Positions 6,401 to 23,378 of a stretch of DNA of 24,579 nucleotides are shown here, one piece after another. Source of the stretch: a virus (taxonomy: Duplodnaviria; Caudoviricetes); the IMG/VR virus record IMGVR_UViG_3300042470_000147, positions 1-24,579 of that record. One strand, written 5' to 3'. The translations under genes and the position numbers were made by a program. Numbering within the stretch: the stretch's first letter is position 1; every line of letters starts with the position of its first letter. The notes under the pieces were generated by a model. It was not told where the DNA came from and searched no databases. It saw nothing but the letters and a program-made list of their open reading frames with translations.

Positions 6401-9400
6401 CGCTGTAGAAGTTCAACTTCTTGTAGTCTTCCTCTGTCGCGTAATGAGCCGAGATACGCTTCGCCATTTCGATTCTCCTTCCAATCGTTCTTTGTAGACG
6501 ATAGCACAACCTGACTAATTATTGAACGGTCAAGTTCAACATTAGTTTGTTCGGCTGCATCGTTCGCAGCATTGATGATCTTCTCGACTTCGTTTCTTCG
6601 CCACTTGCCGCCAAAGTTTAAAAGACGAATGCCCGGCATCCCATCGATGAGGATCTGCTGGAAGCCCGGAGCAATGGGATCGCCTTCTTTGTTCTTTGGT
6701 GCGAACTCAAGGAACTTGGAGAAGAACTTCGTCGCGTTATCAACGGAGTCAAGGTTAGGCGAGAGGATGTCAATCGCCATGTTCTTTCCAGACTTCAACG
6801 ATCTGGTGTTGATGATCTCCGTTTGCTGGAAGGCATAGCCAACCATGTCCATGAAATCATCGACGGCTTCAGGACTCGCGACCGCATCCAGTTGGATCGC
6901 GCCTTCAAGCCACTGGAGATACGCGCCTACGCCCGCGACGTTCTGTTTAACCTTGATACCAGCAAGATTTGCGAGGAACCCAATCTCTCTCTGTGCGACA
7001 TCGACAGGGATTTCTTTCCCTGCGAGTTTGTCTGCGAGGACAGAGTTTGCACCGGGGGCCAAGCCAATCGAAACACGGCGCGTGTTACCGCCAATGATGT
7101 CACGAACGAACTCTGCATCGACGCCCATGGCTCGCTGCATCGTCACCCAACCGACAGCCTGAACCTCGCGAGCGGTCCAACCGCCACCGTCGAAGTTCTG
7201 TCTGTTGAGCATCTCAGCGACATCGTTGTAGAAGTCGATGCCGTACTCGTACTGCGTCTCGCCTGAGGTTGTCTTATCTACCTGAAGGCGATTGGCTGCT
7301 TCATTACCAAAGTTCTTGCGGATGTATTCCTGCACAGTCGGATCGACAAAGCCGATATCGCGCTGCGCCCAGACATCAATCGCCGCAGGCTGTCTGCCAC
7401 GGACATCACCACGAACCACCGTTCGCGTATCCAATCCCAGTTCGCTGTCGAGGAAGTCGAGGAGTTTGTCACCCACTCCGCCTTCCGGAACTCTATCGCT
7501 CAGGACATCGATCAATGCCTGTTGGTTTAAACCTGCCTTCTTGATTTCAGGTTTGCCAACGGCCATGTCCGCTGCTCGCAGTACGTCCGTGAATCCCTTC
7601 GTGGGACTGGCGCGTTTCTGTGAGAGTAGCCATGCGAGTGCGTACTTCGGAGTCTCATCACCGAAGATGGGGCGGAAGGCTTCGTCTAACTGTCGATACC
7701 ACCCGCGAGCATCTTTGATTTCCTCCATGCTCATCAGGGTATTGACACGGTTTAACCAGTCTTCGTTGGTGATCTTTCCAACCAAGAATGAAGGTCTGCC
7801 CGGAACTGTAAGTTCGACACGTTCGTTCCGGGGCGCACCGACACCGGGTTCCCGTGCAAGGCGGCGGCGAATACGACCTTCGGCCTCTTCTGGGGTAACG
7901 ATATCTGCCAAAGGACTACGCGGCGGTTTGCTGCGAGATTCCAAAATGAGATCCGTCTCAAGACCAAAGTCGCCCGTGTTTCCTACCGCAGACTTGACCT
8001 GATTCGGGTTGAAGACAGCAAGGTTCTTCTCGCCCTGCTCTTCAACGAACATGGAGTCATAGCCAAGTTCTCTAATCGCATCAAGAATCGGAGCATTACC
8101 ATCCGATCCTTCAATGGTCTGCCAGTTACCCTGACCAATCTCTTCGACCATGGACGCGGTGATATCTGCGCCGTTCTCTCTGGCGCGACGAACAACAGCG
8201 CGAACATCCTCGCGATTGTCGTAGTCCCAAGGCTTGTCCGCCTTGACGTAGACGGGCATCAGGTTCCCGCTTGAAGGCAGGCGAGTCTGGATGGCGTTGA
8301 GGTAACGCGAACTGCGTCCCTCTGCGGCAACATCCTTCACCGCCTGCAAGGACTTCGGATTGATGGCCTTACCGTTCGCAATGTCCTTCGCGATCCTGTC
8401 TCTCTCCGCCCTCATCTTCTCGTAGAGCGGAGGGGAGAACGAAGACTGGACGGCCAGTGCCTCATTCAAGACATCCAAGACTTGCTGGTCTGACATGAAG
8501 TCCGGGAAGTTGCTGACCATGTAGTTATCAGACAAGAACGCGAACTCTTCCGCGAATGCCGGACTCTTGGTGACGAAGACAGATCCCGCCTGCTTCGGAC
8601 GGAACCGATCAATGATCGCCCCGGTTCCATGGTAGAAAACCTGCGGGCGACCCTGACTATCCTTCGCCTTGCTCTTGCCGAACCAGCGCCAGAAGTTGGT
8701 TAAACCTTGCTCAGTGTTTCGAGTGGCTCTGCCAACCTGCTCAAGACCTTCGCCGCCAATAAAGATCGGGCGACCTTCGGCATTGGTGGTCGGAACCGAT
8801 TCGCCTTCGACAGAGATACGGGGAGGGAGTCTCGACTCCATGATCTCCGCACCCTGAAGCATTTCAGGGGGAAGGTCAGAGGTTGCCCGTGGACGGGCCG
8901 CAGGCGGCGCAGGAGGAGCGGTAGCGGCAGCAGGTGTAACGACGGCAGGGGCTGGAGCAGCGCCTCCCAGAATGCCTGCTAATCGTTCCGGAGTGGTACC
9001 CGCACGGGATAGCGCAGCCTCAGTGGCACGGAGGGTGCGGATCTCACCACGCTGACGACCGCCTACCTCGCCACGCTCAAAGCGGGAAAGGATATCTCCG
9101 TAGGTCTGGAACCCAGTTCCGGTCAGGGCAGAGCGTAGTCTTTGGAAGAACTGCGCCATTCTCTCCAGAAGATTCTGGGGACGCCCACTGACTTTCAATT
9201 GCTTGGCTGTGTAGTCACGGAACATATCCGCGACCGCCTCTTCGATCTGAATTACTCCACTACGATCTGAGTAGTTGGTCTTGGCGATATCGAAGTAGGT
9301 CTGATTAGTACCCGGCTTCTTGACCTTGGTGATGGCGTTCTCAAGGTTCGACCACTCGTCCTGTTTCCATAGATCCAGAAGACGGGCAGCATGGATCACC

Positions 9401-12012
9401 TCGTGACCCATCACCTGATTTAGAGCATTTAAACGCTGTTCTGGTGTCAGCGAACCATCGGGATCTACGCGATCCACTGCGAGGAAAATCTGCTTTAGGC
9501 GCGGATCGAAGAAGGCTTCGGTCTCCTCGCCTGCGATCTCTCCAGTCGGCTGGATCAAGTTCCGTTCAATGTTGAGCGCAATGTCGTTAAGTCCATACCC
9601 ACGCAGCGACTGACGAAGTGCCTTGCGGATTGGGACAAGATTGCCCACACCACCCGGAGGAGCGGGCAATGCAAGGACCGGCTTCGGCGCTACCTTAACG
9701 CCCTGCTTGGACAGATCCTGCTTGAGTACGGCAAGCGTCTCATCGACCTTCGGATATTCCTTAGGCAACCGCGCTGCTTCGATGATCTGATCATCGGTCG
9801 GAGTGACGCCGCGAGCATTCGCGCCTTGAATGAACTTCGATGCACGAACGAAGTTCTCACGGTTGTACGGCTTGAACTCGAAAACAGGAAGTTTGGTTTC
9901 CCGTTCGAAACGCGGAAGGCTAGACAGTTTCTTGTGGAAAAGACGGATGTCGCCGTAGTCCATCTCTTTGACGGAACCCTTCCCTGTAACGCCTTTTGCA
10001 AGGGCATTGACTTCAGGGGAGGCAATGTCTGAGATGATGTTCTTCGAACGAATCAGGTCAGCAATCTGATTGACTGCGCCTTTCTTGCCGAGTTTCGGAT
10101 CAATCGGCACATCCTTGGTGATGGCCGGGAAACTCTTGCCCAGTGCAGACTTGGTTTCTTCAAGCGAAAAGACATTGCTCTCAGGCTTGCCTTCCTGAGA
10201 ACGTGACTTGTTGATCTCTTGGGCCTTGGTCAGACCCTTGATGATGCGAGGCTGACCACCTTCCGGCGTGTACTGATACCCCAATACGCGACCGCGACGA
10301 TCCTTTGCCTTCGGCAACCCTTCGATCTGTCGCCAACTCAGCGCCTCTGCGTAATCAGGGCCGACCGTCTTTGCCGCCTCGTTGAGAGATACAGCAGAGA
10401 ACGTATTCGCATCCGGGTTGAGGGTGCGATATCCGTAACTGAAAAGGCTCTGTGTCGTATCCGGATCGTAAGCCTGACCCGCAGTTTCCAGAGAATTGAG
10501 GATGGCTCCCCGAACATTCTGGTTGACAACTTCTTTGTTTAAACTAAAAGCAGTGGCGTTCGCTTGCTCGAAAGTTTTAAGCGGCTGGCCGTAACGCTTG
10601 CCTTCAGTGTCAATAATTGTGAAGGTCGGTTGCGGGTTACCCGCCTGATCACGAACCGTTTCTCCCTGCTGAACAGAGAACTGACCAAAGTTCGGGAAGT
10701 AATCACCAAGATTACGGGCAATCTTCTGCCCATAAGCCACACCAAACTGAACATCATTAGAGACATCTGGTCCACGCATCGGCGTAGCCAGTTGGTTCAC
10801 CTCGTCCTGAGTCGGCGGGTCGATGGCATCTGCCTGAACACGCGCAGCAGCAGCCTCTGCATCAAGGCTTGTCTGATCCGCTTGGCCCTGCATACGACGC
10901 TGATTCTCAGCCTCAAGGGCTGCACGGAACTCCGCTGCTCGACGCTCCTCTTCCTGACGAAGTTCCGCCTCGCGTTGGCGATCAACCTCGTTGGTGATGT
11001 TCGCACGGGCAAGGTTGTACTCTGCCTGTTGAGTCGGTGAGGCAATCTCGATACCTGCGCCAAGGCCAAAGCCCACCGCGCCTTCCAGTGCCGCAGCCGA
11101 AGCCACGCCGCGCATGGTCGGGATGTCTTCAAAGCCTTCTCTCTGAAGGGCAATGTTCCCAGCCGCTTGTTCTTGTGCGGCTTGAATGAATTCAGGGGCC
11201 GCTTCCTTCGCACCTGCAAAGAGTGCCTTCGTCAATGTGCCTTTCGAAGCCGCATTACTGGTCGCGACGTTCTTGAGGATGCGACTTGCCAGTGCCTTTT
11301 CTAGGCCGGTTCCAGCAGCCAATCCACCCAGTCCTGCACCGAGCAGGATCTGATCCAGATTCTCGCCACCGTATTCTTGAGCCAGTTTTGCTCGCTCTTC
11401 GATGACATCTTCTGGAAGACCCAGTGCTTCCAGTTCGCGTTTAACCTCATCGTAGATGGTGCTTTTGACGATACCCGCACCACCTACCGCACCGATACCG
11501 GTTCCGACACGAGCCGCTGTCGCAGCACGAGCCGCCAATGTGCCGCCGCGCAGAGCCGCACCTGCGAGACCACCCGCGATAGTCGGCACTGCCGTACCAA
11601 TACCCTGTGCGAGGAAGTCCACGGGGGCTGTGGCGAATGCACGAAGACCCGCAGTCAGTTGCTCTCCAAGTCCTTTGTCTTCGGCTTCTTGGAAGATACG
11701 CGCAACTTCTTGCGAGTCTTGCTTGGACTGTGCGCTCAACAAACTGCTGAGGTAATCCTCAACACCACGAATGTTTTGAGAGGCAGCGTTGTCTGCGCCA
11801 AAGGCATCCGTTAAAAAGCGAACGCCTTGAGCAACACCCGTTGCGGCTTTGAGAGGAACATCCGCAACCTGACGGAATACAGATTGATCTTCTGGTTTAG
11901 GAGGCTGGTACTGACTAAAGATCTGATCGAGATCCGCATCAGTCGGCGGAGCATCTCCGGTCAGATCAAGTACAACACCCGTCCTTGGATCTGTGACGCG
12001 GTAAGTAGGCAT
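3469..12012 (-). CDS. large polyvalent (virion-ejected) protein, 2847 aa: Gly/Ala hydrophobic N-region, zincin metallopeptidase, ART-PolyVal-like ADP-ribosyltransferase, HhH-glycosylase-like domain, C-terminal LPD38-like domain
   Basis: HEVIH...EEAVA (9391-9405 onward); FWRWFGKSK..D..GRPQVFYHGT...GNLMPVY...GYDS...VFNPNQVKSA.GN.G.F; WY...SP...K..F...IDVW..R...QAVGW; NYGRRG...PFLNARIQG...KIPIPFE...NYDTFTGRPIVP. Confidence 0.85.
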   Translation of the reverse strand: MPTYRVTDPRTGVVLDLTGDAPPTDADLDQIFSQYQPPKPEDQSVFRQVADVPLKAATGVAQGVRFLTDAFGADNAASQNIRGVEDYLSSLLSAQSKQDSQEVARIFQEAEDKGLGEQLTAGLRAFATAPVDFLAQGIGTAVPTIAGGLAGAALRGGTLAARAATAARVGTGIGAVGGAGIVKSTIYDEVKRELEALGLPEDVIEERAKLAQEYGGENLDQILLGAGLGGLAAGTGLEKALASRILKNVATSNAASKGTLTKALFAGAKEAAPEFIQAAQEQAAGNIALQREGFEDIPTMRGVASAAALEGAVGFGLGAGIEIASPTQQAEYNLARANITNEVDRQREAELRQEEERRAAEFRAALEAENQRRMQGQADQTSLDAEAAAARVQADAIDPPTQDEVNQLATPMRGPDVSNDVQFGVAYGQKIARNLGDYFPNFGQFSVQQGETVRDQAGNPQPTFTIIDTEGKRYGQPLKTFEQANATAFSLNKEVVNQNVRGAILNSLETAGQAYDPDTTQSLFSYGYRTLNPDANTFSAVSLNEAAKTVGPDYAEALSWRQIEGLPKAKDRRGRVLGYQYTPEGGQPRIIKGLTKAQEINKSRSQEGKPESNVFSLEETKSALGKSFPAITKDVPIDPKLGKKGAVNQIADLIRSKNIISDIASPEVNALAKGVTGKGSVKEMDYGDIRLFHKKLSSLPRFERETKLPVFEFKPYNRENFVRASKFIQGANARGVTPTDDQIIEAARLPKEYPKVDETLAVLKQDLSKQGVKVAPKPVLALPAPPGGVGNLVPIRKALRQSLRGYGLNDIALNIERNLIQPTGEIAGEETEAFFDPRLKQIFLAVDRVDPDGSLTPEQRLNALNQVMGHEVIHAARLLDLWKQDEWSNLENAITKVKKPGTNQTYFDIAKTNYSDRSGVIQIEEAVADMFRDYTAKQLKVSGRPQNLLERMAQFFQRLRSALTGTGFQTYGDILSRFERGEVGGRQRGEIRTLRATEAALSRAGTTPERLAGILGGAAPAPAVVTPAAATAPPAPPAARPRATSDLPPEMLQGAEIMESRLPPRISVEGESVPTTNAEGRPIFIGGEGLEQVGRATRNTEQGLTNFWRWFGKSKAKDSQGRPQVFYHGTGAIIDRFRPKQAGSVFVTKSPAFAEEFAFLSDNYMVSNFPDFMSDQQVLDVLNEALAVQSSFSPPLYEKMRAERDRIAKDIANGKAINPKSLQAVKDVAAEGRSSRYLNAIQTRLPSSGNLMPVYVKADKPWDYDNREDVRAVVRRARENGADITASMVEEIGQGNWQTIEGSDGNAPILDAIRELGYDSMFVEEQGEKNLAVFNPNQVKSAVGNTGDFGLETDLILESRSKPPRSPLADIVTPEEAEGRIRRRLAREPGVGAPRNERVELTVPGRPSFLVGKITNEDWLNRVNTLMSMEEIKDARGWYRQLDEAFRPIFGDETPKYALAWLLSQKRASPTKGFTDVLRAADMAVGKPEIKKAGLNQQALIDVLSDRVPEGGVGDKLLDFLDSELGLDTRTVVRGDVRGRQPAAIDVWAQRDIGFVDPTVQEYIRKNFGNEAANRLQVDKTTSGETQYEYGIDFYNDVAEMLNRQNFDGGGWTAREVQAVGWVTMQRAMGVDAEFVRDIIGGNTRRVSIGLAPGANSVLADKLAGKEIPVDVAQREIGFLANLAGIKVKQNVAGVGAYLQWLEGAIQLDAVASPEAVDDFMDMVGYAFQQTEIINTRSLKSGKNMAIDILSPNLDSVDNATKFFSKFLEFAPKNKEGDPIAPGFQQILIDGMPGIRLLNFGGKWRRNEVEKIINAANDAAEQTNVELDRSIISQVVLSSTKNDWKENRNGEAYLGSLRDRGRLQEVELLQRRYPPSRIDLAGDGTIIWQGQEGQQGAAKAAAEVTPIERPQAQLDQAVENARADIESTPAMAIPLYNLAASPDALYVAQNPEQGLKLTPDDEVRYSRQNQPNYRNPNIRTILDQVVPEPPNQDPVRTVINSMRMSPFRDTVDKLRQNAIFNFSRLEFYNQNHPSLMHNTAAVSSLAAAEFADRSKAIFAAAITEGVPVYVDGGFRVDPFVHNGRQYKGLIDVLAPLYNNQYNASLEKLAQAYAVAKRGERLSREGKAVPADAAFLQEIEQEANQYINPATGQPIIREWYDAWQAYNANTVKFLRDTGMIDDAAATKWLNQSDYYPFYRTDKTGKDISDPSVFGGNLTTASTLKALRGSEEGINVPLMEAILSNLDAAIAMGMKNVAQQRIVRDMVNIGMGRFKQPGENVEGKPTVNLKVNGKRVTAFIDDPLIFESMQAIPDVNLDGLLGNLFRVPATVLRELIVREPGYLIANMARDTVSVLLTSGANIIPAVDTARNFNRGLDNLARFGVVGGYDFARDPQDVVKFLSDEARKRGHEIPVREETKWDEVVNSAYMRPLKGAWDFLGTISDKAEASTRNAVYEDTLKRTGDWVEAAYQALSVINYGRRGRNPQLRLVTATVPFLNARIQGLDKLYQAATGTSGVTRDRRKNIQRFVVRAGLMVGLTGLYYAMISDDELYDNENQEVKDNYYLIPIKKADLANREPGFAVKIPIPFEVGILFKTIPERILDMSYGDTTSKDLRDSLLRATTSTLAFNPVPQAILPILETVANYDTFTGRPIVPTYMQDRNAIAQARFGTNELARRAGEATGISPLKLDHLMNGYLGSLGTYTLDAADTLLRDNDMQYPQRKWFEYPFVRRFFTTAMRPGLQEQFYELDKNINGIVGSINALKDQGRVDELQAYMLENENILQLKSGVNVLDKLMKRYRDQKDAILRMDIDPAEKRRIIDELDRNINLQLKVMPQLRRLAYDEQRQAG

Positions 12013-12017
12013 GTGAA

Positions 12018-13688
12018 CTACCGCCGCACAACTTCAACTTGATATCTTGATTGTGCATTCGCAGGCTTTTCGGAATCCGTCTTACGCAACTGAAGTACCT
12101 TCGCTACATCGACAGTGGGGATCATCGCACCGTACTGGCGGATGGCTCTTTCGACAAGCATCTCTCGCATCTGATCCTTCTGCTCCGGACTCAAGCCAAT
12201 CTGATCCTTGAGCGTGTCCTCAATTCTATCCTCAGCCGATTCCACTGCGTTCAAGAATGCGCGGTTGTCCAATGCTTGTTGCTGTGCCGCATTGGCAAGG
12301 TTGCTTCTAACAGAGGTGTCATAGGTGATGAACAACTGAGCAGCGCGATCCTGTCGCTCCCGATCAGACTTCGCAATGTCGCCGTAGATGTTGGCAATCT
12401 GACCCACAGTCTCACGGTCAAACTGCATCTTGTCGATCTGCGCCTGACGCTGTTGCTGCGCGGTCTGCAACTGCAACTGTTCCGCAGTGCGACCTTCAGC
12501 CGTTGCTTCACGACGCCCTTCGCGCAGGGTTTCCATGGCAACCTGAGTCGCCTGCCTCAAACCTGCGGCAGGATCTCCGGCCATTACACCCGCGCCAAGG
12601 CTGGTTAAGGTTCCGGCAATCGCCATGCGACGAGCCTCATCTCGTGCTTCCTGTTGACGCTGCAATGCAGCCTGTCGATAAGGATCAAGATCAAGCGGGG
12701 CCGGAATACCTTGCGCTCTTTGCTGTTCGATGAGATCGATTAAACGCTGCTGCTGTTCCGTGATGCCAGTTGGCTGCATCATTCCGCTGATCATGCTTGG
12801 AACATTGAGATTACTGCCCGCTCCAGTTGGAGCAGTTCTCTGATTAGCCATGGCCGCGCCAACATCCGCTATGCCACCGGGTGGCACAGGAGGCGGAGCG
12901 GCAGGCGGGGCAGCAGACGGTGCGGCAGCAGGCGGGGGATTGCGCTGGCCGGTCATGGCTTGGTTTGCTGCCATGAAATCAAAGTTTGCCGGGAGATTAG
13001 CCGGTGGAGGAGTCGGGGGAGGGGTCGGTGCCGTAGCCGCCGCAGCCTCCATGGGAGGACGCTGAACAGATCCCAGCGCACGAGCAGGATCAATGCCTTC
13101 GTTCCTCAGCAATGTCGCTGCTTCTTCAACGCGATCTGCCTGAGCAAGCGCCTGCGCTTCGCGGATCACAGAGAACTGTGCGCGACGTGGTAAAAGCAGC
13201 GAAGACAACGAAGCACGATTCGCCTCAACACCCTCTTGGGTTTGAAAGCCGGGGATGAATCGCTGTGCGAAGTTGGGAACCGTTCTGCCTTCCTGCATTC
13301 GGTACGGAACCTGCCCGCCCTGATACATGCCCATCGGCGCACCGGTCATCGGCTGCTGTCTCGGCGCTCCCGGAGGGGCTGCTCCCTGAGGAGCCATTGG
13401 AGGCGCTGCTCTCATCGGCGCGGCACCTTGAGGGGCCATCGGAGGAGGCTGCTGGGTTCCCGGCGGAGGACCGCCCACACCCGCAATGCCGCTTTGAAGG
13501 ATCTGATCCTTCACCGTTTGCTGAGGCTGCTGCTGATTCGCCTGAAACCGTTGACGCATATCCTGCCTTCTCTGAACTTCAGAGACTGCAAGGAACTGAG
13601 GGATTCGGCCCGAAGGGAACTGTGCTTCTTGGAACAAGACTTGGTCAGGAAGACCCTTGACCATGTCTTCTGCTTCGATGATGTTCAT
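12018..13688 (-). CDS. putative internal virion/ejection protein, 556 aa, Pro/Ala/Gln-rich
   Basis: GAGG RBS; lies between the pilot-like and polyvalent genes; low-complexity Pro-Ala linker, hydrophobic IAGTLTSLGAGVMAG segment and Gln-rich helices. Confidence 0.65.
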   Translation of the reverse strand: MNIIEAEDMVKGLPDQVLFQEAQFPSGRIPQFLAVSEVQRRQDMRQRFQANQQQPQQTVKDQILQSGIAGVGGPPPGTQQPPPMAPQGAAPMRAAPPMAPQGAAPPGAPRQQPMTGAPMGMYQGGQVPYRMQEGRTVPNFAQRFIPGFQTQEGVEANRASLSSLLLPRRAQFSVIREAQALAQADRVEEAATLLRNEGIDPARALGSVQRPPMEAAAATAPTPPPTPPPANLPANFDFMAANQAMTGQRNPPPAAAPSAAPPAAPPPVPPGGIADVGAAMANQRTAPTGAGSNLNVPSMISGMMQPTGITEQQQRLIDLIEQQRAQGIPAPLDLDPYRQAALQRQQEARDEARRMAIAGTLTSLGAGVMAGDPAAGLRQATQVAMETLREGRREATAEGRTAEQLQLQTAQQQRQAQIDKMQFDRETVGQIANIYGDIAKSDRERQDRAAQLFITYDTSVRSNLANAAQQQALDNRAFLNAVESAEDRIEDTLKDQIGLSPEQKDQMREMLVERAIRQYGAMIPTVDVAKVLQLRKTDSEKPANAQSRYQVEVVRR

Positions 13689-13691
13689 CGT

Positions 13692-16619
13692 TTAACCTCG
13701 TTGACCAAAGGCCTGATACAGACCCAAGGCTCCTAAGCCGCCGCCCAGTAACTGTTGTTCCGCTGTCGGAACTCTACCAAAGGTTGATACCGCGCTGCCC
13801 GGTTGAACAGGGACGCCTTGCAAGAGATTGCTGAGATAACCCAACTGCTCCCGGCCATACGCCTGCTGACGTAGGAAGTCTTCGTAGCCGATATCCAGAC
13901 CGCGCTGCATGAGACCTCGACGCTCTGCGCCGATAGCCTGCTGTGCGGCCAGTCTTTGCAGGTCCAACTGTTGCTGCTGTCCGCCAAGACCGGTGAGAAG
14001 TTCCGCTGCCGCCAGTCGTTGAGCCTGACCAGCGCGATCTGCTGACAACCCCTCCAGTCCAAGCAACGCTCTTTGACGCTGCTGTTCGACATTGAACTGC
14101 TGGGCTTGCATCAAGAACTGCTGCTGCGCCTGACGGGCTGCTTCGGTCTGCTGCTGCGCCGACAACCCAAGTTCTGCCGCCCTCTGGCGAGCCTGTTCGC
14201 CCGCTTGCTGGGCCTGCAACTGGAACTGCCCCTGCTGCTGACGAGCCGCCTCTTGGGCTTGGAATGCGCCAAGGCCCATCTGTCCTTGGGCTTGCCTTGC
14301 CGCTTCGGTGGCTTGGAAGCCCTGCAATCGGAACTGCTCTGCGGCTTGTCTTGCCGCCTCGGTCTGTTGCTGTGCAGACAATCCAAGTTCTGCTGCCCGC
14401 TGACGCGCTTGTTCCCCAGCCTGCTGCGCTTGGAAATTGATATTGGCTTGGAACTGACGCTGTTCTGCGCCCATACCAAATGCCGATTGACGGAACTGTT
14501 CTGATGCCTGACGTGCGGCATTGTTCTGCTGCTGTGCAGACATCCCCATCTCAGCCGCTCGCTGACGGGCCTGTTCACCCGCCTGTTGAGCCTGAAGATT
14601 GATGTTCGCTTGGAACTGTCTCTGCTCCGCAGTTTGTGCAAAGGCTGACTGACGGAACTGTTCCTGTGCTTGTCTGGCCGCTTCAGTCTGTTGCTGGGCA
14701 GAAAGACCCAACTCTGCCGCCCTTTGACGAGCCTGCTCACCGGCTTGTTGCGCTTGAAGGTTGACGTTTGCAGCGAACTGACGTTCCTCTGCGCCCATGC
14801 CAAACGCAGACTGACGGAATTGTTCTTGGGCTTGTCGAGCCGCTTCATTCTGCTGCTGAGCAGACATGCCCATTTCCGCAGCGCGTTGACGGGCTTGTTC
14901 ACCCGCTTGCTGCGCTTGGAAGTTAAGTTCGGCTTGTTGGACACGCGACTGTTCCTGCGCTTGGAAAGCCGCAAGACCCATCTGTCCCTGAGCCTGACGA
15001 GCCTGTTCGCGCTGTGAGTACGCGCTCTGTCTAAACTGTTCAGCCGCCTGACGTGAAGCCTCTTCCTGCTGCTGGGCTGTCATGCCCATCTCAGCCGCAC
15101 GTTGCTTCGCCTGTTCCGCAGCCTGTTGTGATTGGAATCGCAGGTTCGCTTCAAACTGTCGCTCTTCACCGGTCGCTTGGAACGCACGGAGACCAAACTC
15201 CGCCTGAGCCTGACGCGCTGCTTCATTCTGTTGCTGGGCTGACAAGCCAAGTCGTGCCGCTTCCTGACGGGCAGATTCACCTGCCTGCTGGGCCTGCAAA
15301 GACATCTCGCCTGCGCGTTGACGGGCGGCTTCCTGTGCTTGGAATGCGCCAAGTCCGAACTGCGCCTGCTGCAATCGGGCAGCACGATCTGCTTCAAATC
15401 CTGCACGGGCTTGCTCAAAGGCAGACTGCAAGCCACGGGCTTGGATGTCTCCCAACTGCTGGCCTAAGGCCCTCTGTCGCTCTGCTTCCAGAAGGGTAGA
15501 ACGGGTTCCGCCGAAAGCCCCTGCGCGAGCCGCCTCTGCACCGATCTGAGGGCGCTGCATCTCTGATGCGCGAATCGCCTCTCGTCTCTCAATGTCCGTC
15601 ACGGCCTGTTGATAAGGCGACATGTAGGCTTCAAGAGTTCCCGGTGCAGCAAGCGATCCGGCCTCAAAGCCTGCCTGTAACTGACCGGCCTGATAGCCCG
15701 GTGTAAACGTGCCAGCCTCGTAGCCCGGAGTAATAGTCCCCGCCTGATAACGGTCCGTAAATCGCTCGCCTTGGAATCCGGGTTCAAAAGTACCCGCAAC
15801 ATATCCGGGCTGAAACCGTCCCGCTTGGAACTGCGAAGTTAGATCACCGGCTTGATAGGTTGGGCCTACGGTTCCGGCAGTGAATCCCGGAGCGAATGCC
15901 CCTGCGGTGTATCCCGGAGTGATGGTTCCAGCGCGATATTCAGGAGAATAACTTTGTGCCTGAAATCCGGGAGCAAAAGTTCCTGCTTGGTAGCCGGGTG
16001 TAAACGCCCCGGCCTGATAGCCCGCAGTGAGATCTTGTGCTTGGAACCCCGGTTGAAACTGACCTGCCTGATAGGCAGAGGTGATCATCTCCGGCGCAAA
16101 CTGAGAGGTGTAATCCTGTGCCTGAAAGCCCGGAGCAAATGCGCCTGCGGTATATCCCGGAGCAAATGCCCCCGCTTGATAGGACGGGGCATAGGTTCCG
16201 GCCTGATACATCGGGCCTACCTGACCTGCCTGATAGCCTGTGCCAAATTGACCAGCGCCATATCCCGTCTGGAACTGAGTGGCCTGATACGTCGGGGTGA
16301 TGGCACTGGGCTGGAACTGCCCAACGATATCCATAGCAGAAGGCTGAGGGGCCGTGCCAACTTGCTGGGCAATGTTGGTCGCCATCCCGATCTGCTCTGG
16401 CCGGGTCAGCGCAGTGATGCCTCGCTGTGCAGTAGTCTCCTCAGGAGCGAACTGCGCTAAACGCTGTCCAGTAAAAACCTGATAAGGACGCGCACTCTCA
16501 AACAATCCTCGTTGCAGTACCTGCTCGAAGTACGGCTGAACATAAGGAGGAAGACTGCTTTGAGTAACTGTTGAGGTGACCTGTTGTGGGCCACCACCAC
16601 CGCCGCCGCCGCTGCTCAT
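13692..16619 (-). CDS. putative DNA-pilot/ejection protein with two matched repeat arrays, 975 aa
   Basis: MSSGGGGGGG start, LPPYVQPY and YMSPYQQAV...AGAFGGTR motifs typical of podovirus-type ejected proteins; hydrophobic Gly-rich C-terminus; GAGGT RBS; ATGA overlap with the upstream gene. Confidence 0.75.
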   Translation of the reverse strand: MSSGGGGGGGPQQVTSTVTQSSLPPYVQPYFEQVLQRGLFESARPYQVFTGQRLAQFAPEETTAQRGITALTRPEQIGMATNIAQQVGTAPQPSAMDIVGQFQPSAITPTYQATQFQTGYGAGQFGTGYQAGQVGPMYQAGTYAPSYQAGAFAPGYTAGAFAPGFQAQDYTSQFAPEMITSAYQAGQFQPGFQAQDLTAGYQAGAFTPGYQAGTFAPGFQAQSYSPEYRAGTITPGYTAGAFAPGFTAGTVGPTYQAGDLTSQFQAGRFQPGYVAGTFEPGFQGERFTDRYQAGTITPGYEAGTFTPGYQAGQLQAGFEAGSLAAPGTLEAYMSPYQQAVTDIERREAIRASEMQRPQIGAEAARAGAFGGTRSTLLEAERQRALGQQLGDIQARGLQSAFEQARAGFEADRAARLQQAQFGLGAFQAQEAARQRAGEMSLQAQQAGESARQEAARLGLSAQQQNEAARQAQAEFGLRAFQATGEERQFEANLRFQSQQAAEQAKQRAAEMGMTAQQQEEASRQAAEQFRQSAYSQREQARQAQGQMGLAAFQAQEQSRVQQAELNFQAQQAGEQARQRAAEMGMSAQQQNEAARQAQEQFRQSAFGMGAEERQFAANVNLQAQQAGEQARQRAAELGLSAQQQTEAARQAQEQFRQSAFAQTAEQRQFQANINLQAQQAGEQARQRAAEMGMSAQQQNNAARQASEQFRQSAFGMGAEQRQFQANINFQAQQAGEQARQRAAELGLSAQQQTEAARQAAEQFRLQGFQATEAARQAQGQMGLGAFQAQEAARQQQGQFQLQAQQAGEQARQRAAELGLSAQQQTEAARQAQQQFLMQAQQFNVEQQRQRALLGLEGLSADRAGQAQRLAAAELLTGLGGQQQQLDLQRLAAQQAIGAERRGLMQRGLDIGYEDFLRQQAYGREQLGYLSNLLQGVPVQPGSAVSTFGRVPTAEQQLLGGGLGALGLYQAFGQRG
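14052..15401 (-). repeat. coding tandem array: 25 x 54 bp (18 aa) Gln/Ala/Arg-rich helical units
   Basis: Gap-free 18-aa phase from GFEADRAARLQQAQFGLG to AQQFNVEQQRQRALLGLE (1350 nt); AQQAGEQARQRAAE[LM]G[LM]S recurs every 3-4 units. Confidence 0.92.
15642..16316 (-). repeat. coding tandem array: 25 x 27 bp (9 aa) [YF]QAGxFxPG units
   Basis: Gap-free 9-aa phase from FQPSAITPT to FEAGSLAAP (675 nt), with an aromatic residue at position 1 of every unit. Confidence 0.92.
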
Positions 16620-17059
16620 TGTGATACCTCATCAAAATGCTTTTCAAAGATCACCGTCTTGACGGTGTACCCTCGCTTCTTAACGTGCGGCTCCCAACCG
16701 GGGCGACCGAAAAACTCAATGCCCTGACAGCCCATGTCCTTGGCGAACTGGTCTGCTGTCTCATGCATCTTGTCTTCAATATGCTTCATGTGATTCGGCG
16801 TCATCGCGCAATACTGAATCACGAACATCTTCTTCTGTGGGTAATGCTTGATCTCCGTCATCACGAAACCATGGATCTCGTTAGATTCCGGTTCGTAGAC
16901 CGCCCACAATTGCATCTGCCCGGTCAATGCAAACCGGACGATGTCATCAATATTGGCTCGTCCCATGGACCACATCTCTGATTCGTTTAAATAACGCATC
17001 AGAGTGGGGATCACATAACTGATCTTTCCGTAAGGGACAAGTGAGATATTGAGATTCAT
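16616..17059 (-). CDS. GNAT-fold acyltransferase-like virion assembly protein
   Basis: 147 aa; QLWAV...GFVMTEI...FAKDMGCQGIEFFGRPGW...GY pattern; position before the ejection genes parallels T7 gp13 / P22 gp14. Confidence 0.65.
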   Translation of the reverse strand: MNLNISLVPYGKISYVIPTLMRYLNESEMWSMGRANIDDIVRFALTGQMQLWAVYEPESNEIHGFVMTEIKHYPQKKMFVIQYCAMTPNHMKHIEDKMHETADQFAKDMGCQGIEFFGRPGWEPHVKKRGYTVKTVIFEKHFDEVSQ

Positions 17060-20000
17060 CCTGCCGCCTTCCTATAGGGCTTCACTTGTTCCGTGGTCCC
17101 CATGGTCTTGCTGCGGATGTCATCGACAAGATTGTCGAAGAACTTCGCCCCATCGCCAGAATATCCGCCGCCTGCAAGGGCCACTGCATCTGCCGGGATG
17201 ATGTATTCACCGGGTGACACGGCCACCGGACGTTGCGAACCAATCATCCCATCGACCATGTCATCCTGACCGCCGCCGTTGCCCTCAACCATTCCTTCGG
17301 TTTGTGCATTCGGAACGATTTCGCGAAGGACTTGATTGCGAAGTTGCATGAAGTTTTCAGATCCGTAGGTATCTACGAATGCCTGAATCACTTGATCTGC
17401 GTTTTCAATCTCTCCGCGAATGGCAGCAATCGTCATGGAAATCAGTTGCTGAGAATCACCTTGATTCATTGGAGGCTGATCCACGGCATCTGAAGTAGCA
17501 CCGCCTTCAGCAAAGTATCCGGGGAATTCAGATTGAACGCTGCCCGTTGGCTGACTGGCAAGCAACGCCTCAAGACCTGAGATTCTTTGCAGGACAGGGT
17601 CAAGGTTGGTTGGAGCAATTGATCCGATCTGAGATTGCAGCGTTCCCAGTTGACTATAGATTCCGCTCAAGTCCGGAGCCGAAGGAATACTGGACCTCAA
17701 AGATCCAAACTGAGATTCCAATTGACCGAAGCGATTGTAGATCCCGCTCAAATCCGGAGCCGCAGGGATACTCGATGACAACGAGCCAAGTTGAGATTGC
17801 AATGTTCCCAACTGCCCATAGATCCCGCTTAGATCAGGCGCTGAAGGAATGCTAGATCTCACCGATCCAAGTTGAGATTCCAATTGGCCGAAGCGATTGT
17901 AAATACCACTCAAATCTGGTGCAGCAGGGATACTCGATGACAACGAGCCAAGTTGAGATTGCAATGTTCCCAACTGCCCATAAATTCCACTCAAGTCAGG
18001 CGCGGCGGGGATACTGGATCTGATTGAACCCAGTCCTTGTTCAAGTCCGCCAAGTCTAGATTCAAGTCCTGCGAGCCGATTGTAATCAAACTCAAACGGC
18101 GTATAGGCCGGAATCTGAATACTGCCAACTCTAGACTCAAGACCGCCCAGCCTTGATTCAAGGCCGCTCAAATCAATCTGAGGAATTCTGCTGTAATCAA
18201 ACTCAGGTGTCGGTCTGGATTCAATCGCAGCAAGCCTTTGCTCTAGGGGAGAGAAATCAAAACTGGGGACAGGAATCCTGCTGTAGTCAAATTCAGGAAC
18301 CGGTCTAGATTCAATTGCAGCGAGTCTCTCCTCAATGGGAGAGAAATCAAAACTGGGAACAGGGATACGACTGTAATCAAACTGAGGCACAGGCCTTGAC
18401 TCAATCGCGGCAAGCCTTGACTCAAGACCACTAAAGTCAATGGTAGGCATTTGAATGTTTCCAATTCCGGTCTCAAGACCTCTCAGCCGAGACTCAAGAC
18501 CAGACAGATCTACTGTCGGAGCATTCAATACCGGGGCAGGAATATTTTGAATGCGGGACTCAAGACCACCCAGCCTTTCATAAAGGCCGCTCAGATCTAC
18601 CGCAGGCGCATTCACTACAGGCGCAGGGGCATTGGCAAGCCTTGATTCCAGTCCTGCAAACCGAGCCTCAAGCCCACTTAAATCAAACGTAGGTATTTGA
18701 CTGTAATCAAACGTGGGTATCTTGCTGTAATCAAATTCAGGCTGTGGCCTATTTTCAATTTCTGCAAGTCGCTCGTTGATGTTACTTAAAAAAAAATTGT
18801 TTGGGTCGTAGAGACCTTCTAGATTCTGATTGATGCCCTGAAGGGTATCGCCCAACCCACCAAGATTCACCGGAACAGAAACATTGATCGGCGCTTGAGA
18901 GGTCGGCCTTGTGGCAAGACCCGCATTAAGTGCGGCGTATTGCGCTCCCAGATTACCAATGCTTTGCTGCAATGGCATGAACTGCTGGGAAAGGTAGTTC
19001 TCTGTTTGCAGTCGAGACAGTTCTGTGCGGAACGGATCAAGTTCACGCTGCAACAAAGACTGCGTTTCCATTTCGCGAATGCGCTCTTGAAGAGGATCAA
19101 ACCGCTCAGAAAGAGTCTCCTCAAGCAAATCAGAATATGCGCTTGGATCAAACGAAGGAATCTGCTGACTTTGGATATTTGCAAAGTTCGATAGGTATTG
19201 ACCCAAGTTTGATAGGTCGATTCCACCATATCTTCCATCTGGAGATACGCCAGCAGGCGGAGCAGGAGAGGCTCCGGGCGGAGGCGTTCTGGAGAAGTAT
19301 TCAAATTCCGGGGAAACACCCGGCAAGTAGCCTTGTCCGCCGACATCTAACGCAGAGTAACTGGCCGTTGGCGGGGTCTGTACATACTGCCCCCTCAGTC
19401 CTAACTGGACATTCTCAGCAGTGGGAAGACTAGAGCCATACAGTTGACTGATGGCCGCTTGACGAGCGCGTTCCTCAATGTCTCCGCCATCGAAGTACTT
19501 CTCGACCATGCCACCTTCGGCATACCCAACGCCGGGATAAGCCGATCGAACTTGGTTAAACACATTGCCCATTTGACCGAGGGTCTTGCGTCTTTCAGCG
19601 GCCTGCTGCTCTTCGTATTCCCTCATGCTGCCTCGACCCATGAGTTCTTGCTCACGGGCCATGCGGCTGGTCTCTCCAACATAGGCAGGGAGAAAGGTTC
19701 CGGGGGAAGAGAGTTGTTTCAAAAAAGCGCCGGGTTCTTGGAATGGCGCAGACAATCTCTGGGTGGCAGTCAGACCTGCTGGCGGGGTCACCGCAGGGCT
19801 TGCCGTGACACCCGCAAAATCAGGAGCAGCCGTCATCTGAGAAGCCGCCATGCCCGGCGCAAACGAAGACGGAGTGCTTTGCAGGGCAGATTGGAGTGTG
19901 GCATCTGCCGCTAATGGATTCATCGTAGAAGCCGCAGCACCGGGGCTGAACGTCGTTGCCGCATCGGTGGCCGCTTGGGTGGCGGTATCAACGCCCGCCT

Positions 20001-20397
20001 TCGACAGCGCATCGCCTGCTGCGCCAAATGCCTGACCCAGTCCAAACCCGGTGATGCCTGAGAGGATGCCCTGCTCCAGATCGCCCGTGACGGCAGCGGT
20101 CGCGAGACCAGATCCAATCGCACCTGCGGCAGCGGAACTCAGTCCGGCTGCGCCAAGGATGCCAGCGCCTGCGCCAGTCAACAGGGACGATCCAAGGAAA
20201 GACCCCAACAAGGGGGCAAGGAAGGGCAGGAAGGCCTCTGGCTGTCCGGTCTGGGGGTTCCGGGTCAACTGTCCGGTCGGGGACAGACGGGACAGCATCT
20301 GAACCTCAATCGGGTTCATGTGTACAAGTTGCGAGTCACCGTATCTGCCGTATCCGGCAAGTTGGTTCGCGACTCCTTGGTATGGGGCTTTATACAT
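17056..20397 (-). CDS. putative internal virion protein with internal repeats, 1113 aa
   Basis: TAGGAG RBS; N-terminal GRYGDSQLVHMNPIE...NPQTGQPE motif, Gly/Ala hydrophobic stretch, AxGG motifs, C-terminal GGGQDD...VSPGEYIIPADAV domain. Confidence 0.75.
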   Translation of the reverse strand: MYKAPYQGVANQLAGYGRYGDSQLVHMNPIEVQMLSRLSPTGQLTRNPQTGQPEAFLPFLAPLLGSFLGSSLLTGAGAGILGAAGLSSAAAGAIGSGLATAAVTGDLEQGILSGITGFGLGQAFGAAGDALSKAGVDTATQAATDAATTFSPGAAASTMNPLAADATLQSALQSTPSSFAPGMAASQMTAAPDFAGVTASPAVTPPAGLTATQRLSAPFQEPGAFLKQLSSPGTFLPAYVGETSRMAREQELMGRGSMREYEEQQAAERRKTLGQMGNVFNQVRSAYPGVGYAEGGMVEKYFDGGDIEERARQAAISQLYGSSLPTAENVQLGLRGQYVQTPPTASYSALDVGGQGYLPGVSPEFEYFSRTPPPGASPAPPAGVSPDGRYGGIDLSNLGQYLSNFANIQSQQIPSFDPSAYSDLLEETLSERFDPLQERIREMETQSLLQRELDPFRTELSRLQTENYLSQQFMPLQQSIGNLGAQYAALNAGLATRPTSQAPINVSVPVNLGGLGDTLQGINQNLEGLYDPNNFFLSNINERLAEIENRPQPEFDYSKIPTFDYSQIPTFDLSGLEARFAGLESRLANAPAPVVNAPAVDLSGLYERLGGLESRIQNIPAPVLNAPTVDLSGLESRLRGLETGIGNIQMPTIDFSGLESRLAAIESRPVPQFDYSRIPVPSFDFSPIEERLAAIESRPVPEFDYSRIPVPSFDFSPLEQRLAAIESRPTPEFDYSRIPQIDLSGLESRLGGLESRVGSIQIPAYTPFEFDYNRLAGLESRLGGLEQGLGSIRSSIPAAPDLSGIYGQLGTLQSQLGSLSSSIPAAPDLSGIYNRFGQLESQLGSVRSSIPSAPDLSGIYGQLGTLQSQLGSLSSSIPAAPDLSGIYNRFGQLESQFGSLRSSIPSAPDLSGIYSQLGTLQSQIGSIAPTNLDPVLQRISGLEALLASQPTGSVQSEFPGYFAEGGATSDAVDQPPMNQGDSQQLISMTIAAIRGEIENADQVIQAFVDTYGSENFMQLRNQVLREIVPNAQTEGMVEGNGGGQDDMVDGMIGSQRPVAVSPGEYIIPADAVALAGGGYSGDGAKFFDNLVDDIRSKTMGTTEQVKPYRKAAG
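17620..18020 (-). repeat. coding array: 5 x 27 aa SSIP[AS]APDLSGIY... units alternating A/B (162-bp super-period)
   Basis: A = GQLGTLQSQLGS, B = NRFGQLESQ[LF]GS; perfect 59-bp direct repeat at 17762-17820 and 17924-17982. Confidence 0.9.
18100..18780 (-). repeat. coding degenerate repeats D[LF]SGLExRL / RLAAIESRPxPxFDYSRIP (about 3 x 30 aa core)
   Basis: Seen directly in the translation; boundaries approximate. Confidence 0.8.
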
Positions 20398-20484: not shown

Positions 20485-21090
20485 TCATCGTATCGACCCC
20501 GCCTCGTAATTGGAGACCAAATAGATGGTCATGATGATCGACGGGATTCCGGGGATGTTCCCGGAAGGGGTGTCTGCTAAGAGAACAACGCCCGTATCAG
20601 AAGACTGCCAGACCAACTCGAAATAGTCCCCGCCGTTTAGAACGAGAAGGAAGTTCCATGCCGGAACCACCTCTGCGTTAGGCCCATCGATGACAATTTT
20701 GGTTGCTGAGTCAGGGACATTAACCCCGTTTACACGAGGCCAAATGTAGACGGCGCTGGCACTACCCCCCGTTTTGTCCAACTGGGCAGAGAACTGAATG
20801 TTGTAGATGCCCGTATCCGAAATGTAAATCTTGGATGTCGGTATTCCGCGTTCAATCTGAAACTCGCTGACTACGCCGTTGTAGGTGATCAGGTTGACCG
20901 TATCTGCGACAGGATTGGTCTGGGTCGTGGTGTCGTAGTACGAGGCATGAGGGATAGGGGAATTCAATTCATTCGTGATGTTGTTGAAGAACAGCCTCAG
21001 CACGTTGGCAAACTGATCCTGATATCGCCTCTCATAAGCCTGTGGGGCAACGGGAAGGTTCGGAGGAGCGACACCATAAACGACACCCAT
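20485..21090 (-). CDS. virion structural protein with C1q/TNF-like beta domain (short spike/fibre)
   Basis: N-terminal PPNLPVAP..Y...Y.DQF..VLRLFF helix, then GIYNIQFSAQL...VYIW..VNG...GDYFELVW; TAATG coupling to the upstream gene. Confidence 0.6.
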   Translation of the reverse strand: MGVVYGVAPPNLPVAPQAYERRYQDQFANVLRLFFNNITNELNSPIPHASYYDTTTQTNPVADTVNLITYNGVVSEFQIERGIPTSKIYISDTGIYNIQFSAQLDKTGGSASAVYIWPRVNGVNVPDSATKIVIDGPNAEVVPAWNFLLVLNGGDYFELVWQSSDTGVVLLADTPSGNIPGIPSIIMTIYLVSNYEAGSIR

Positions 21091-23378
21091 TAGCGTCTCC
21101 CGTCCGGTCTAATATCCAGACGCATCGCACCCATCTGCCATGCCACACCAAGGCCAGATGAGGTCACACGAAGGGCTAACTGCCTGCCTCTGATGCGGGT
21201 ATAGACCTGCTCGGTATATCTCTCGACAGGAAGAACTGCCAAAGCATTCACGGGATCTACGTCAGGGGTTCCGTAAGCCGCGCCGGGGTAGTTATGCGGG
21301 TACAGGCTCAGGGTGACCGAAGGAGTTCCATTACTGGAACCCAAGAACTTCACGTCAGGAATGATTCGAGATACGAAACTGAAATTGTTTCCATCTCCAA
21401 TATCAAAGTCAGAAGTTTCGATGAAAGCCGTAATGGGTTCCGCGATACCCGTTTCCAGATTGTCCCAGCCGATCTCGTGGAACATCACCTGATTCGGTGC
21501 CTTCATGGCGACAATGGAATAAATTGAATGCGAAGCGGCAATGGTGTTGTTGACGCCGCGCACACATCCCGTCAATGAGTTTCCACTGATCCCGGTGTAA
21601 ATGATCTCTTCGTTCTCAATGACGATGGCTCCTTCTGACGGATATGAACCTGCATTGAGGAGGGTGATCGTGGTATCCGTTGCAGAGATATTCGAAGACA
21701 AATAGGAAGTCTGAACGCTCTTTGCCAGCATCGGAAATGATCTCAGGGTCTGCTGGACAAATGCGGTTCTGTTTAAACTTCCATAGTGCCATGTGCCGTC
21801 TTGGTAGTTGAACGTCACATACAGGCTATTTACTTGGCTTCCTGTGCCGGGATAAAACCACCAAATCTCACTGTATGGTTCATTGATACCGCACATTACT
21901 TGAGAGATCTGAGATCTGTTCAATGTGCTGAAAACGTGCTGCCTCAATGAGCAAGGCAGTGTTTGAACGCGACCGTCATACACGAAGAACTTGTCTTCGC
22001 CCATCCAGTACACGGAGTTGTTCACTGCAATAACTGAATTCTGCGAAGCAACCGAAATGTCTTGGTCGAGGAGATTGAAGTTCCACACGAACGGAGGGCC
22101 GACATACTGCATCGCATAGACAGCAGTGTCAGTGAGAATCAAAATCTCTTGGCGCGTCGAAGTACTGGTAACAATAAATGAGCCGTTCGACAGTCTCTGC
22201 TCGCCAGACTGATTGGTGAGTTCGGGAACCCATTCATACGGGTTTCCTTGGTCAGACCATCGGACCAGAAGCGGATCGAATTCAGTATTGAAGTTGGTCG
22301 GGTCATAAGGCTTTGCGCCCAAGCAAATCAAGAAGTCTCTGATGGGAGACAAATTGATGGTCATTGTCTTGTTTGGCGCATGTTCGCCAGAATAGGACGC
22401 AGTGACAGCCACCGTTCCAGAGCCGGTGGTCGCCGCAGAAAGCGTCAAAGACGTTGATCCTGTCCATGCCGTCGTAACATAAGCGCCGGTCGGAATCCCG
22501 CTTCCGGCAATGACAGATCCCGTGTTGATCCCCGTTGCATCCGATACCACAATCGTCGTTGATCCAGAGGCGAACGTGGCTGTCGTAGAAACTTTCGGGA
22601 CCGTATCGATTTTCGTTTTAAACGTAACAGCCCGAGACCATGTGGCAACATCATCTGTCCAGTAGTAAATGTTTCCTTCTCTTTCAGCGAAGAGGCAGTC
22701 ATCGCCGTAATTGAGAATGGACCACAAGCGCATCGACACGCCGACAGGGATACTGGAACCCCATGCTCCAAATCCCCATGGACCACCGCCCCAACCAATG
22801 GCTGTCGTTGATACGGCAGGACCCGCATTGATCTGATACTGAACAACGACTGCCGCACCACCGCCCGTCGCCGTTGACGATGCGGCTGTGGAGGCAATGA
22901 CAGAGAACGTGTTGGCAGATGCAACGCCGACAATCTCGTATTCGCCTGAGAGCGTGATGCCCCCTACTGCGGTAGCACCGCTGATCGTTATATAAGTGCC
23001 AACAGTCGCACCATGTGAAGTCGCTGTAATGACAACCAGTTTGCTTCCACTGGTTGTGTCAATGGGATCTGAGCCAAGGGTCGCGGTAGTTCTAATCGGG
23101 GTAATATCATGGAAGATACCGCCAAACTCCATGTAGAGTTTTTGCGTGGTGCCGATTGCTAGAAGATTCTGGGACTGGAGGGTGACGTAGTTCCAGACAT
23201 ACCTTGCAACGCCATTGTAGGTTCCGCCAGACGAAGTGATGTTCTGCCAGCCACCTATCTTCTGGGCAAATCCACCACGGAACCGAACCTTTTCAGAAAC
23301 GAAAAAGCCGCCCTCGTTGGCATAGTTCGTGGTTTCTCTATTGACGCCGGGTCGGAATTCAAGTTTTTGGAGCGGCAT
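21090..23378 (-). CDS. tail nozzle / head-stabilisation-like protein (P22 gp10 / T7 gp12 analogue), 762 aa
   Basis: Beta-propeller-like segments (LLVRWSDQ, NSVYWMG.DKFFVYDG, YSEIWWFYP) and C-terminal RIRGRQLALRV...WQMGAMRLDIRPDGRR; Thr/Gly-rich inserted beta domains. Confidence 0.7.
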   Translation of the reverse strand: MPLQKLEFRPGVNRETTNYANEGGFFVSEKVRFRGGFAQKIGGWQNITSSGGTYNGVARYVWNYVTLQSQNLLAIGTTQKLYMEFGGIFHDITPIRTTATLGSDPIDTTSGSKLVVITATSHGATVGTYITISGATAVGGITLSGEYEIVGVASANTFSVIASTAASSTATGGGAAVVVQYQINAGPAVSTTAIGWGGGPWGFGAWGSSIPVGVSMRLWSILNYGDDCLFAEREGNIYYWTDDVATWSRAVTFKTKIDTVPKVSTTATFASGSTTIVVSDATGINTGSVIAGSGIPTGAYVTTAWTGSTSLTLSAATTGSGTVAVTASYSGEHAPNKTMTINLSPIRDFLICLGAKPYDPTNFNTEFDPLLVRWSDQGNPYEWVPELTNQSGEQRLSNGSFIVTSTSTRQEILILTDTAVYAMQYVGPPFVWNFNLLDQDISVASQNSVIAVNNSVYWMGEDKFFVYDGRVQTLPCSLRQHVFSTLNRSQISQVMCGINEPYSEIWWFYPGTGSQVNSLYVTFNYQDGTWHYGSLNRTAFVQQTLRSFPMLAKSVQTSYLSSNISATDTTITLLNAGSYPSEGAIVIENEEIIYTGISGNSLTGCVRGVNNTIAASHSIYSIVAMKAPNQVMFHEIGWDNLETGIAEPITAFIETSDFDIGDGNNFSFVSRIIPDVKFLGSSNGTPSVTLSLYPHNYPGAAYGTPDVDPVNALAVLPVERYTEQVYTRIRGRQLALRVTSSGLGVAWQMGAMRLDIRPDGRR

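Follow-up and report, generated by a model that had tools for sequence, protein, structure and literature searches.

The 975-residue protein encoded at positions 13692-16619 (minus strand) of a lake phage genome carries two repeat arrays in a single open reading frame, and these arrays match each other in mirror order and, across the family, in length. The window analysed is a phage record of 24,579 nucleotides (IMGVR_UViG_3300042470_000147; Duplodnaviria, Caudoviricetes), 42% complete, and the gene is predicted from matches to phrog_4287 to encode an ejection (pilot) protein. The best single mechanism for the match is a length-tunable tail extension, to which we assign a probability of about 0.6: a zipped hairpin forming an oligomeric DNA conduit whose length would be set by the number of matched units.

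A sequence-only reading of the window had described 25 units of 9 residues, an 80-residue core and 25 units of 18 residues, and this layout was borne out exactly. All parts lie on the minus strand. A conserved N-terminal anchor of predicted helices (residues 20-101; 16317-16562), which coevolves with the C-terminal anchor, leads into the nine-residue units (residues 102-326, 225 in all; 15642-16316), predicted to form an extended strand. Position 1 of these units is aromatic and position 6 is apolar in 25 of 25. The core (residues 327-406; 15402-15641) appears from coevolution to be an antiparallel helical hairpin with its turn at the GAFGG motif, and the spacing of the core motifs is 59 residues in 175/175, 139/139 and 52/54 homologues in three separate scorings. 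The 18-residue units (residues 407-856, 450 in all; 14052-15401) are predicted to make a straight helix with five turns per unit, in which an Ala/Gly stripe (positions 1, 5, 8, 12 and 16) lies opposite a Gln stripe (positions 3, 10 and 14). The conserved C-terminal anchor (residues 857-975; 13695-14051) would begin with a helix pairing with the N-terminal anchor and finish in a Gly-rich, mildly apolar end. The highest 19-residue hydropathy in this anchor is only about 0.6; its conserved Gly-rich apolar helix (residues 950-970) is a candidate membrane-inserting segment. At the other terminus, many homologues (e.g. P0002, P0003, L047, L080 and P0254) have a leader of 20-35 residues before the Gly run with which the 975-residue protein starts, possibly a cleaved propeptide.

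The order of unit variants is irregular in both arrays, and the sequence-only reading had proposed that unit i of the first array faces unit 26-i of the second. Pattern matching reproduced all of the class lists it had given, with one qualification. The FQ[AG][QE] nine-residue units (8, 11, 14 and 21) face the RQFxAN 18-residue units (18, 15, 12 and 5), the VGP units (4 and 17) face units 22 and 9, the IT units (1, 9, 15 and 22) face the units with Asn at position 5 (25, 17, 11 and 4), and the FQAQxY units (8 and 14) face the GMG units (18 and 12). All seven [AS]QQA[GA]E units likewise face nine-residue units of the YxAGxFx[PT] type, but nine units fit that pattern, so this pairing is seven of nine and not one-to-one.

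This match was quantified as the correlation between the unit-similarity matrices of the two arrays, which in the mirror register was 0.49 with BLOSUM scores, 0.52 with identity and 0.43 with DNA. The mirror score was reached in 0 of 100,000 permutations by each of these three measures, so concordance is better than in shuffled registers. It also exceeded every shifted or parallel register tried (shifts -12 to +12), the runner-up being parallel +4 at 0.36-0.38. The mirror register in this protein was also selected by a pairing score, whether this was trained on 30 homologues or restricted to the more distant 13 (again 0 of 100,000 shuffles). Among 20 distant proteins the mirror score was above the parallel score in 17, and was significant singly at 0.05 in six. 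In a sliding-window version of the test the repeat phase dominates, so that mirror and parallel registers are indistinguishable; length ratios of 2.0 and 2.07 were recovered. The mirror match is real.

Nor does it come from the assembly. Between 71 and 100% of the words sampled from the gene were present in 24 lake-water runs, and in all four of the lake runs compared, contigs span all 30 bins of the gene with no insertions or deletions listed. A contig from run X1, which may be the source run, covers 13837-16700 without difference. As contigs from these runs cover the gene in this way, the array match is not an assembly artefact. Between three-unit repeat blocks, only about 33-55% of the codons that specify the same residue are identical, and it follows that the repeat copies are old and that the match between them has been kept. 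Recent duplication and assembly collapse were both rejected from this codon divergence together with the lake-run contigs.

The same relation is seen in the lengths of the arms in homologues. The N arm was taken as the distance from the anchor to the core and the C arm as that from the core to the anchor, and a protein was counted on the 1:2 line if C minus 2N lay between -65 and -15, a band set after a first scoring of homologues. The first set comprised 299 distinct proteins, 275 of them scorable and 112 non-redundant. Inside the band were 99 of the 112, with a slope of 1.96 and r of 0.994 within it; over all 112 the Theil-Sen slope was 1.875 and the Spearman correlation 0.86. A further set of 146 representatives (50% identity) consisted of the top scorers to a profile of matched proteins, a choice that may favour matched arms; 139 were scored and 132 lay in the band (Theil-Sen slope 2.00, 1.97-2.03; Spearman 0.957). 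Ordinary least squares over all homologues gave much lower slopes, 1.02 in the first set and 1.39 in the second, because of a few large N-arm inserts.

Changes in the two arms also go together on a tree of 140 proteins, where the sign agrees in 105 of the 121 contrasts with an N-arm change of at least 4 and the median ratio is 1.93. Steps between sister pairs include 4:7, 4:11, 5:11, 9:18, 16:33, 27:54 and 32:66. In the close clade the numbers of units in the two arrays are equal in 64 of the 66 proteins made of whole units, at 5, 6, 7, 8, 9, 11 and 12 units and at 25 in the 975-residue protein. The independent variation of counts that would have spoken against paired arrays was thus not seen, and the 1:2 length coupling is real and family-wide.

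A second repeat alphabet obeys the same rule with different units. In four of four proteins, one of them 964 residues long, 16-residue units and 33-residue units (three hendecads) are present in equal numbers. These sequences (L078, 5113-7995; L039, 5221-7527; L042 and L050) are unrelated to the 9:18 alphabet and are carried on the same scaffold, reaching nearly the total length of the 975-residue protein. Their units alternate strictly, and mirror and parallel registers score alike in them.

The direction in which the arms run was addressed by mean-field coevolution analysis of the conserved blocks (465 sequences, effective number 204), in which the bands examined were picked after a first run. 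An antidiagonal in the core (i+j = 730-745; 676 of 25,006 pairs) holds 24 of the top 50 pairs, where about 1.4 are expected, and one linking the N-terminal region to the C-terminal one (i+j = 952-968) holds 7 of the top 50 against about 1.9. In the latter, residues 58-72 and 38-41 coevolve antiparallel with residues 889-901 and 923-932. This suggests a hairpin closed at both ends, by an antiparallel core and by an N-to-C-terminal pair, between which the arms would therefore have to run antiparallel.

Rules at the level of single side chains were then found for the facing units. Of the 87 distinct unit pairs that have a small residue at helix position 5, 86 carry an aromatic residue at strand position 6. 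Strand position 6 and helix position 2 are rarely both aromatic, with an odds ratio of 0.09 in the query clade (208 pairs) and 0.05 in 15 distant proteins (96 pairs). For this count 5 of the 20 distant proteins were dropped for poor automatic unit cutting, and p values are optimistic as the units are related. Many of the coupled helix positions are on or beside the Ala/Gly stripe. The register code proposed from the sequence thus holds in part: aromatic exchange carries over to distant clades, but the position-5 rule does not, and the code is not universal. Part of the class match can, moreover, come from joint duplication by inheritance.

Several observations weigh against this interpretation. 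Contact between the arrays was sought in two AlphaFold2 models and not found, as the arms are not docked. In the model of the 975-residue protein, residues 372 to 933 make up a helix with hardly a break, and the nine-residue arm is left without regular secondary structure at a predicted local distance difference test score (pLDDT) of about 30-39. The model of a five-unit homologue is alike, with the helix formed and the strand arm at pLDDT below 50. The position-5 rule is specific to its clade, with only 9 of 38 pairs obeying it in distant clades; the top 12 strand-helix couplings had no significant slope at residue level (r -0.21, p 0.52), and when aromatic residues were scanned against small ones across the family, without unit boundaries, no clean peak emerged. 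Of 140 non-redundant homologues, 19 are off the 1:2 line, and some of these (L018, L044 and L038) have long unmatched inserts in the N arm, Pro/Gly-rich in these three. No significant sequence or fold match in the PDB was obtained to the solved ejection proteins T7 gp14, P22 gp7 or DEV gp73, the models being of low confidence, and P22 gp7 was only a weak lead (0.87, on 13-18% of members).

As long unmatched N-arm inserts exist, extra strand can evidently loop out; excess helix is rarer than excess strand (3 of 140). Further long N arms unmatched by helix were seen in L034, L135, L139, L150, L156 and L157. Three other off-line proteins (P0020, P0152 and P0062) look like single-crossover mosaics, either recombinants or chimeric assemblies, with arms that match those of two different paired-length relatives at 92-100% identity. 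A trimer prediction of residues 237-568 scored 0.04 ('no answer') and was used neither way, while the hits of fold searches with both models were either uncharacterised phage proteins or helical matches below significance. In the proposal that the chain folds back on itself, the geometry is supported by antiparallel coevolution at both ends of the arms, and the length coupling is supported as well; array contact was not seen in the structure models. Contact between the arrays is thus suggested by statistics and not by a structure model, and taken over all pairing models, fold-back pairing of the arms is likely.

The family was next related to known ejection proteins. A profile search gave 8,156 clusters (50% identity, E up to 1e-10). 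The only cultured matches were three cyanophage records of 65,014 bases, at 29% identity. The whole 975-residue protein had no Pfam or PHROG match. All ten short homologues searched, however, match phrog_4287, 'DNA ejection protein', over nearly their whole length (E 2e-9 to 4e-20), and the three non-repeat parts of the 975-residue protein match it in profile order (E 7e-6, 0.009 and 0.013). By profile, then, the protein belongs to PHROG 4287, a name that is an annotation, the function being predicted. The profile has 392 positions, to which the 975-residue protein adds 675 residues of paired repeats. A Peptidase S74 chaperone-bearing fibre was rejected on finding no Pfam match in this protein or in 22 homologues, four of them long, and a match to Spt5 in the PDB falls on Tyr/Pro/Gly repeats and was judged compositional.

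The gene is part of a minus-strand module in the order 762-, 1113-, 147-, 975-, 556- and 2847-residue proteins. Directly downstream is the 556-residue gene (12018-13688), likely the next ejection protein, with a homologue in that place in 37 of 55 loci. It is followed by a 2847-residue polyvalent protein (3469-12012) with LPD38 and ART-PolyVal domain matches, which is probably the module's large ejected protein. C-terminal extensions of more than 250 residues are present in 48 of 139 representatives (P0302, P0335, L047, L052 and L079 among them), and in 26 of 51 long-tailed homologues the C-terminal region matches the profile of the downstream genes; these are natural fusions of two ejection genes, which places the C-terminus next to the following component.

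In the class formed by T7 gp14, gp41 of the phiKMV-like Ar-KM and P22 gp7, the gene precedes a mid-sized and then a very large one, and the core is a hairpin; both features are shared here, the hairpin by coevolution. Ejected T7 gp14 is described as a pair of antiparallel helices that sit embedded in the nozzle (PMC11784390), and Ar-KM gp41 as a hexameric helical hairpin with both termini directed out of the nozzle (bioRxiv 10.64898/2026.05.18.726046). From its gene position and hairpin core the 975-residue protein is placed in this gp14/gp7 slot, and most likely, by analogy, it works like a protein of this class. Outer-membrane ejection proteins of the class have 181-240 residues and are said to vary the least in size (PMC8954989); N4 gp52, of 150 residues, and DEV gp73 are described as helical (PMC13434306). 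The family differs here, as its members have about 290-975 residues without fusions, vary by paired repeats and have a predicted strand-on-helix section; the size feature of the class is not shared.

The following mechanism is proposed. The chain would fold back so that the nine-residue units lie as an extended strand along the straight helix of 18-residue units, contacting its Ala/Gly face; coevolution suggests one aromatic ring per site, supplied either from strand position 6 or from helix position 2. Several copies would assemble into a DNA conduit, with the number of matched units setting its length. By analogy with T7 gp14, the phiKMV-like gp41 and phiX174 H, the hairpin turn would stay in the tail nozzle, with the zipped arms reaching out toward the cell. 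Both termini would then point at the cell, the C-terminal end meeting the outer membrane and the ejection protein that follows. As in the tube of phiX174 H, the lumen may be lined by the Gln stripe, and the strand may tape the outside of the helices, of its own chain or of a neighbour, like the T7 gp16 tape. Each pair of units would add 2.7 nm, since 18 residues make five straight turns and are matched by nine extended residues at 3.0 Å; by the same arithmetic the 33:16 units correspond to 3.1 Å per strand residue. With an assumed straight helix, the repeats would span 68 nm and the hairpin as a whole some 80 nm; the corresponding figure for the shortest relatives is roughly 15 nm. The most likely use of so long a reach would be to cross a thick surface layer or a wide gap separating the tail from the outer membrane. 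Arm length does not track the length of the downstream gene (rho 0.09, n = 44), in weak agreement with an extension outside the cell.

The same zipped rod might instead span the periplasm, in the manner of phiX174 H or the T7 gp15 tunnel, its length tracking the thickness of the envelope. In its favour, the helix is rich in Gln and, like that of the phiX174 H tube, has steps of 7 and 11 residues, and the family match is to a generic 'DNA ejection protein'. We consider it unlikely, however, as the position of the gene ahead of the 556- and 2847-residue genes, the hairpin core and the apolar C-terminal end fit the gp14/gp7 slot, arm length is independent of that of the downstream gene, and close relatives with 80-90% identical cores have 5-12 units against 25, a range that would exceed the variation of the periplasm among related hosts. 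It is similarly unlikely that the arms pair without forming a DNA conduit, either as a strut, needle or antenna or with the strand merely chaperoning the helix in the capsid and peeling off at ejection. Antigen I/II is a monomeric stalk of the same geometry, and ejection proteins refold strongly between the stored and the ejected state, both of which would suit such a rod; yet the Gln stripe lies opposite the strand-binding face of the helix, as expected for a lumen, and the module context and the fusions link the protein to the ejection channel.

The remaining alternatives concern the match itself. If only total length were selected, the class match could be history, with blocks copied together or with double crossovers swapping the core and inner units, and there would be no residue code. 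Partner classes do vary between clades, the position-5 rule is clade-specific, and the three mosaics indicate that recombination in the gene, or chimeric assembly, occurs. Nonetheless the aromatic-exchange rule holds both in the query clade and in distant clades with different unit sequences, and paired classes persist between blocks whose synonymous sites are largely scrambled, which makes this explanation rather improbable; it would, in any case, still require side-by-side arms. That the arms never touch, the match being due to chance or assembly, agrees with the absence of contact in the structural models but is highly improbable. It is largely refuted by the family-wide 1:2 coupling, and is countered also by the shuffles, the distant-homologue pairing score, the lake-run contigs, the coevolution and the aromatic exchange.

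The closest precedent for the zipper, one chain with a helix and an extended strand folded back on it, is the A-P stalk of streptococcal antigen I/II (SpaP), described as an Ala-rich helix interlocked by Tyr knobs with Pro-rich extended repeats in a fold-back stalk of more than 50 nm. Its N- and C-terminal domains lock the far end, and some homologues have shorter versions of both repeat regions (PMC7732690, PMC3178794). The order is reversed, as the helix of antigen I/II is N-terminal and carries the Tyr, whereas in the phage protein the strand comes first and carries most of the aromatics. Antigen I/II is also a monomeric surface adhesin with a globular tip, unlike the proposed phage conduit, and its A-V-P-C order, signal peptide and LPXTG anchor are features that the phage protein does not have. 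No sequence similarity between the two was found in Pfam and PDB searches, and the excerpts of PMC7732690 and PMC3178794 available describe no irregular mirror-matched class order.

Other systems share single features with the proposed tube. The H protein of phiX174 is described as a Gln/Asn/Arg-rich helix, built in steps of 11 and 7 residues, and as forming a tube that conducts DNA (PMC7354561); it is unlike the present protein in being a 17 nm decamer of plain helices, without a second, taped array, in a single-stranded DNA microvirus. In T7 the gp16 'molecular tape' on gp15 is an extended segment that cements the helical interfaces of the ejection tunnel (PMC8954989), but it is a separate chain of fixed length. 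In coronavirus HR1/HR2 an insertion in one antiparallel arm was compensated in the other (PMC10893436), there helix against helix, 14:14, in a single event and with no repeat code. Searches of the open-access literature turned up no ejection protein described with matched repeat arrays. The view that such a register code has not been described in phage ejection proteins agrees with these searches; its geometry has a precedent outside phages in antigen I/II.

The other genes of the window lie mostly upstream in the module, on the same strand. The 147-residue gene directly upstream (16616-17059) matches phrog_7642 and has a homologue upstream in 41 of 55 loci. None of 17 such upstream genes gave a convincing Pfam match, and an acetyltransferase identity considered for this neighbour was set aside for want of Pfam support. 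The 1113-residue gene (17056-20397), with a homologue in 45 of 55 loci, has a weak match to an internal virion protein family (phrog_342, E 6e-5). It contains arrays of its own at 17630-18735, with periods of 27 and 30 residues, and its length ranges from about 500 to 1200 residues between loci where it is complete. The 762-residue virion structural protein (21090-23378; phrog_3287, E 1e-59) is likely, by position and size, the tail nozzle or hub. A motif consisting of an aromatic residue or Met, Ala, one of Glu/Gln/Asp and Gly-Gly recurs in the module neighbours at 12018-13688 and 17056-20397 and at fusion junctions (P0250, P0262 and P0379), and is possibly a packaging or cleavage signal. Elsewhere, 822-1499 has a weak match to glycosyltransferase family 8 (phrog_28018).

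How short-tailed phages match a transient DNA channel to the surfaces of their hosts is an open question, the characterised gp14-class proteins being short and of nearly fixed size. The present family offers a graded set of natural lengths governed by a simple relation, each strand residue being matched by two helix residues, which makes tube length, register and host reach directly testable. It also supplies hundreds of natural variants of a zipper of α-helix and extended strand, a fold best known from one adhesin family, and these may help to understand rigid rods and to design them to a set length. The fullest version of the proposal is more tentative, falling somewhat short of an even chance: that a very large family of uncultured short-tailed phages makes its ejection channel from a self-templating strand-on-helix zipper, its register fixed by complementary side chains of two different repeat alphabets, giving a digital and evolvable tube length (steps of 2.7 nm, roughly 15-80 nm), and reinvented at least twice, as the 9:18 and the 16:33 type. 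If true, it would mean that a tape-measure principle governs a tail extension that is present only during infection.

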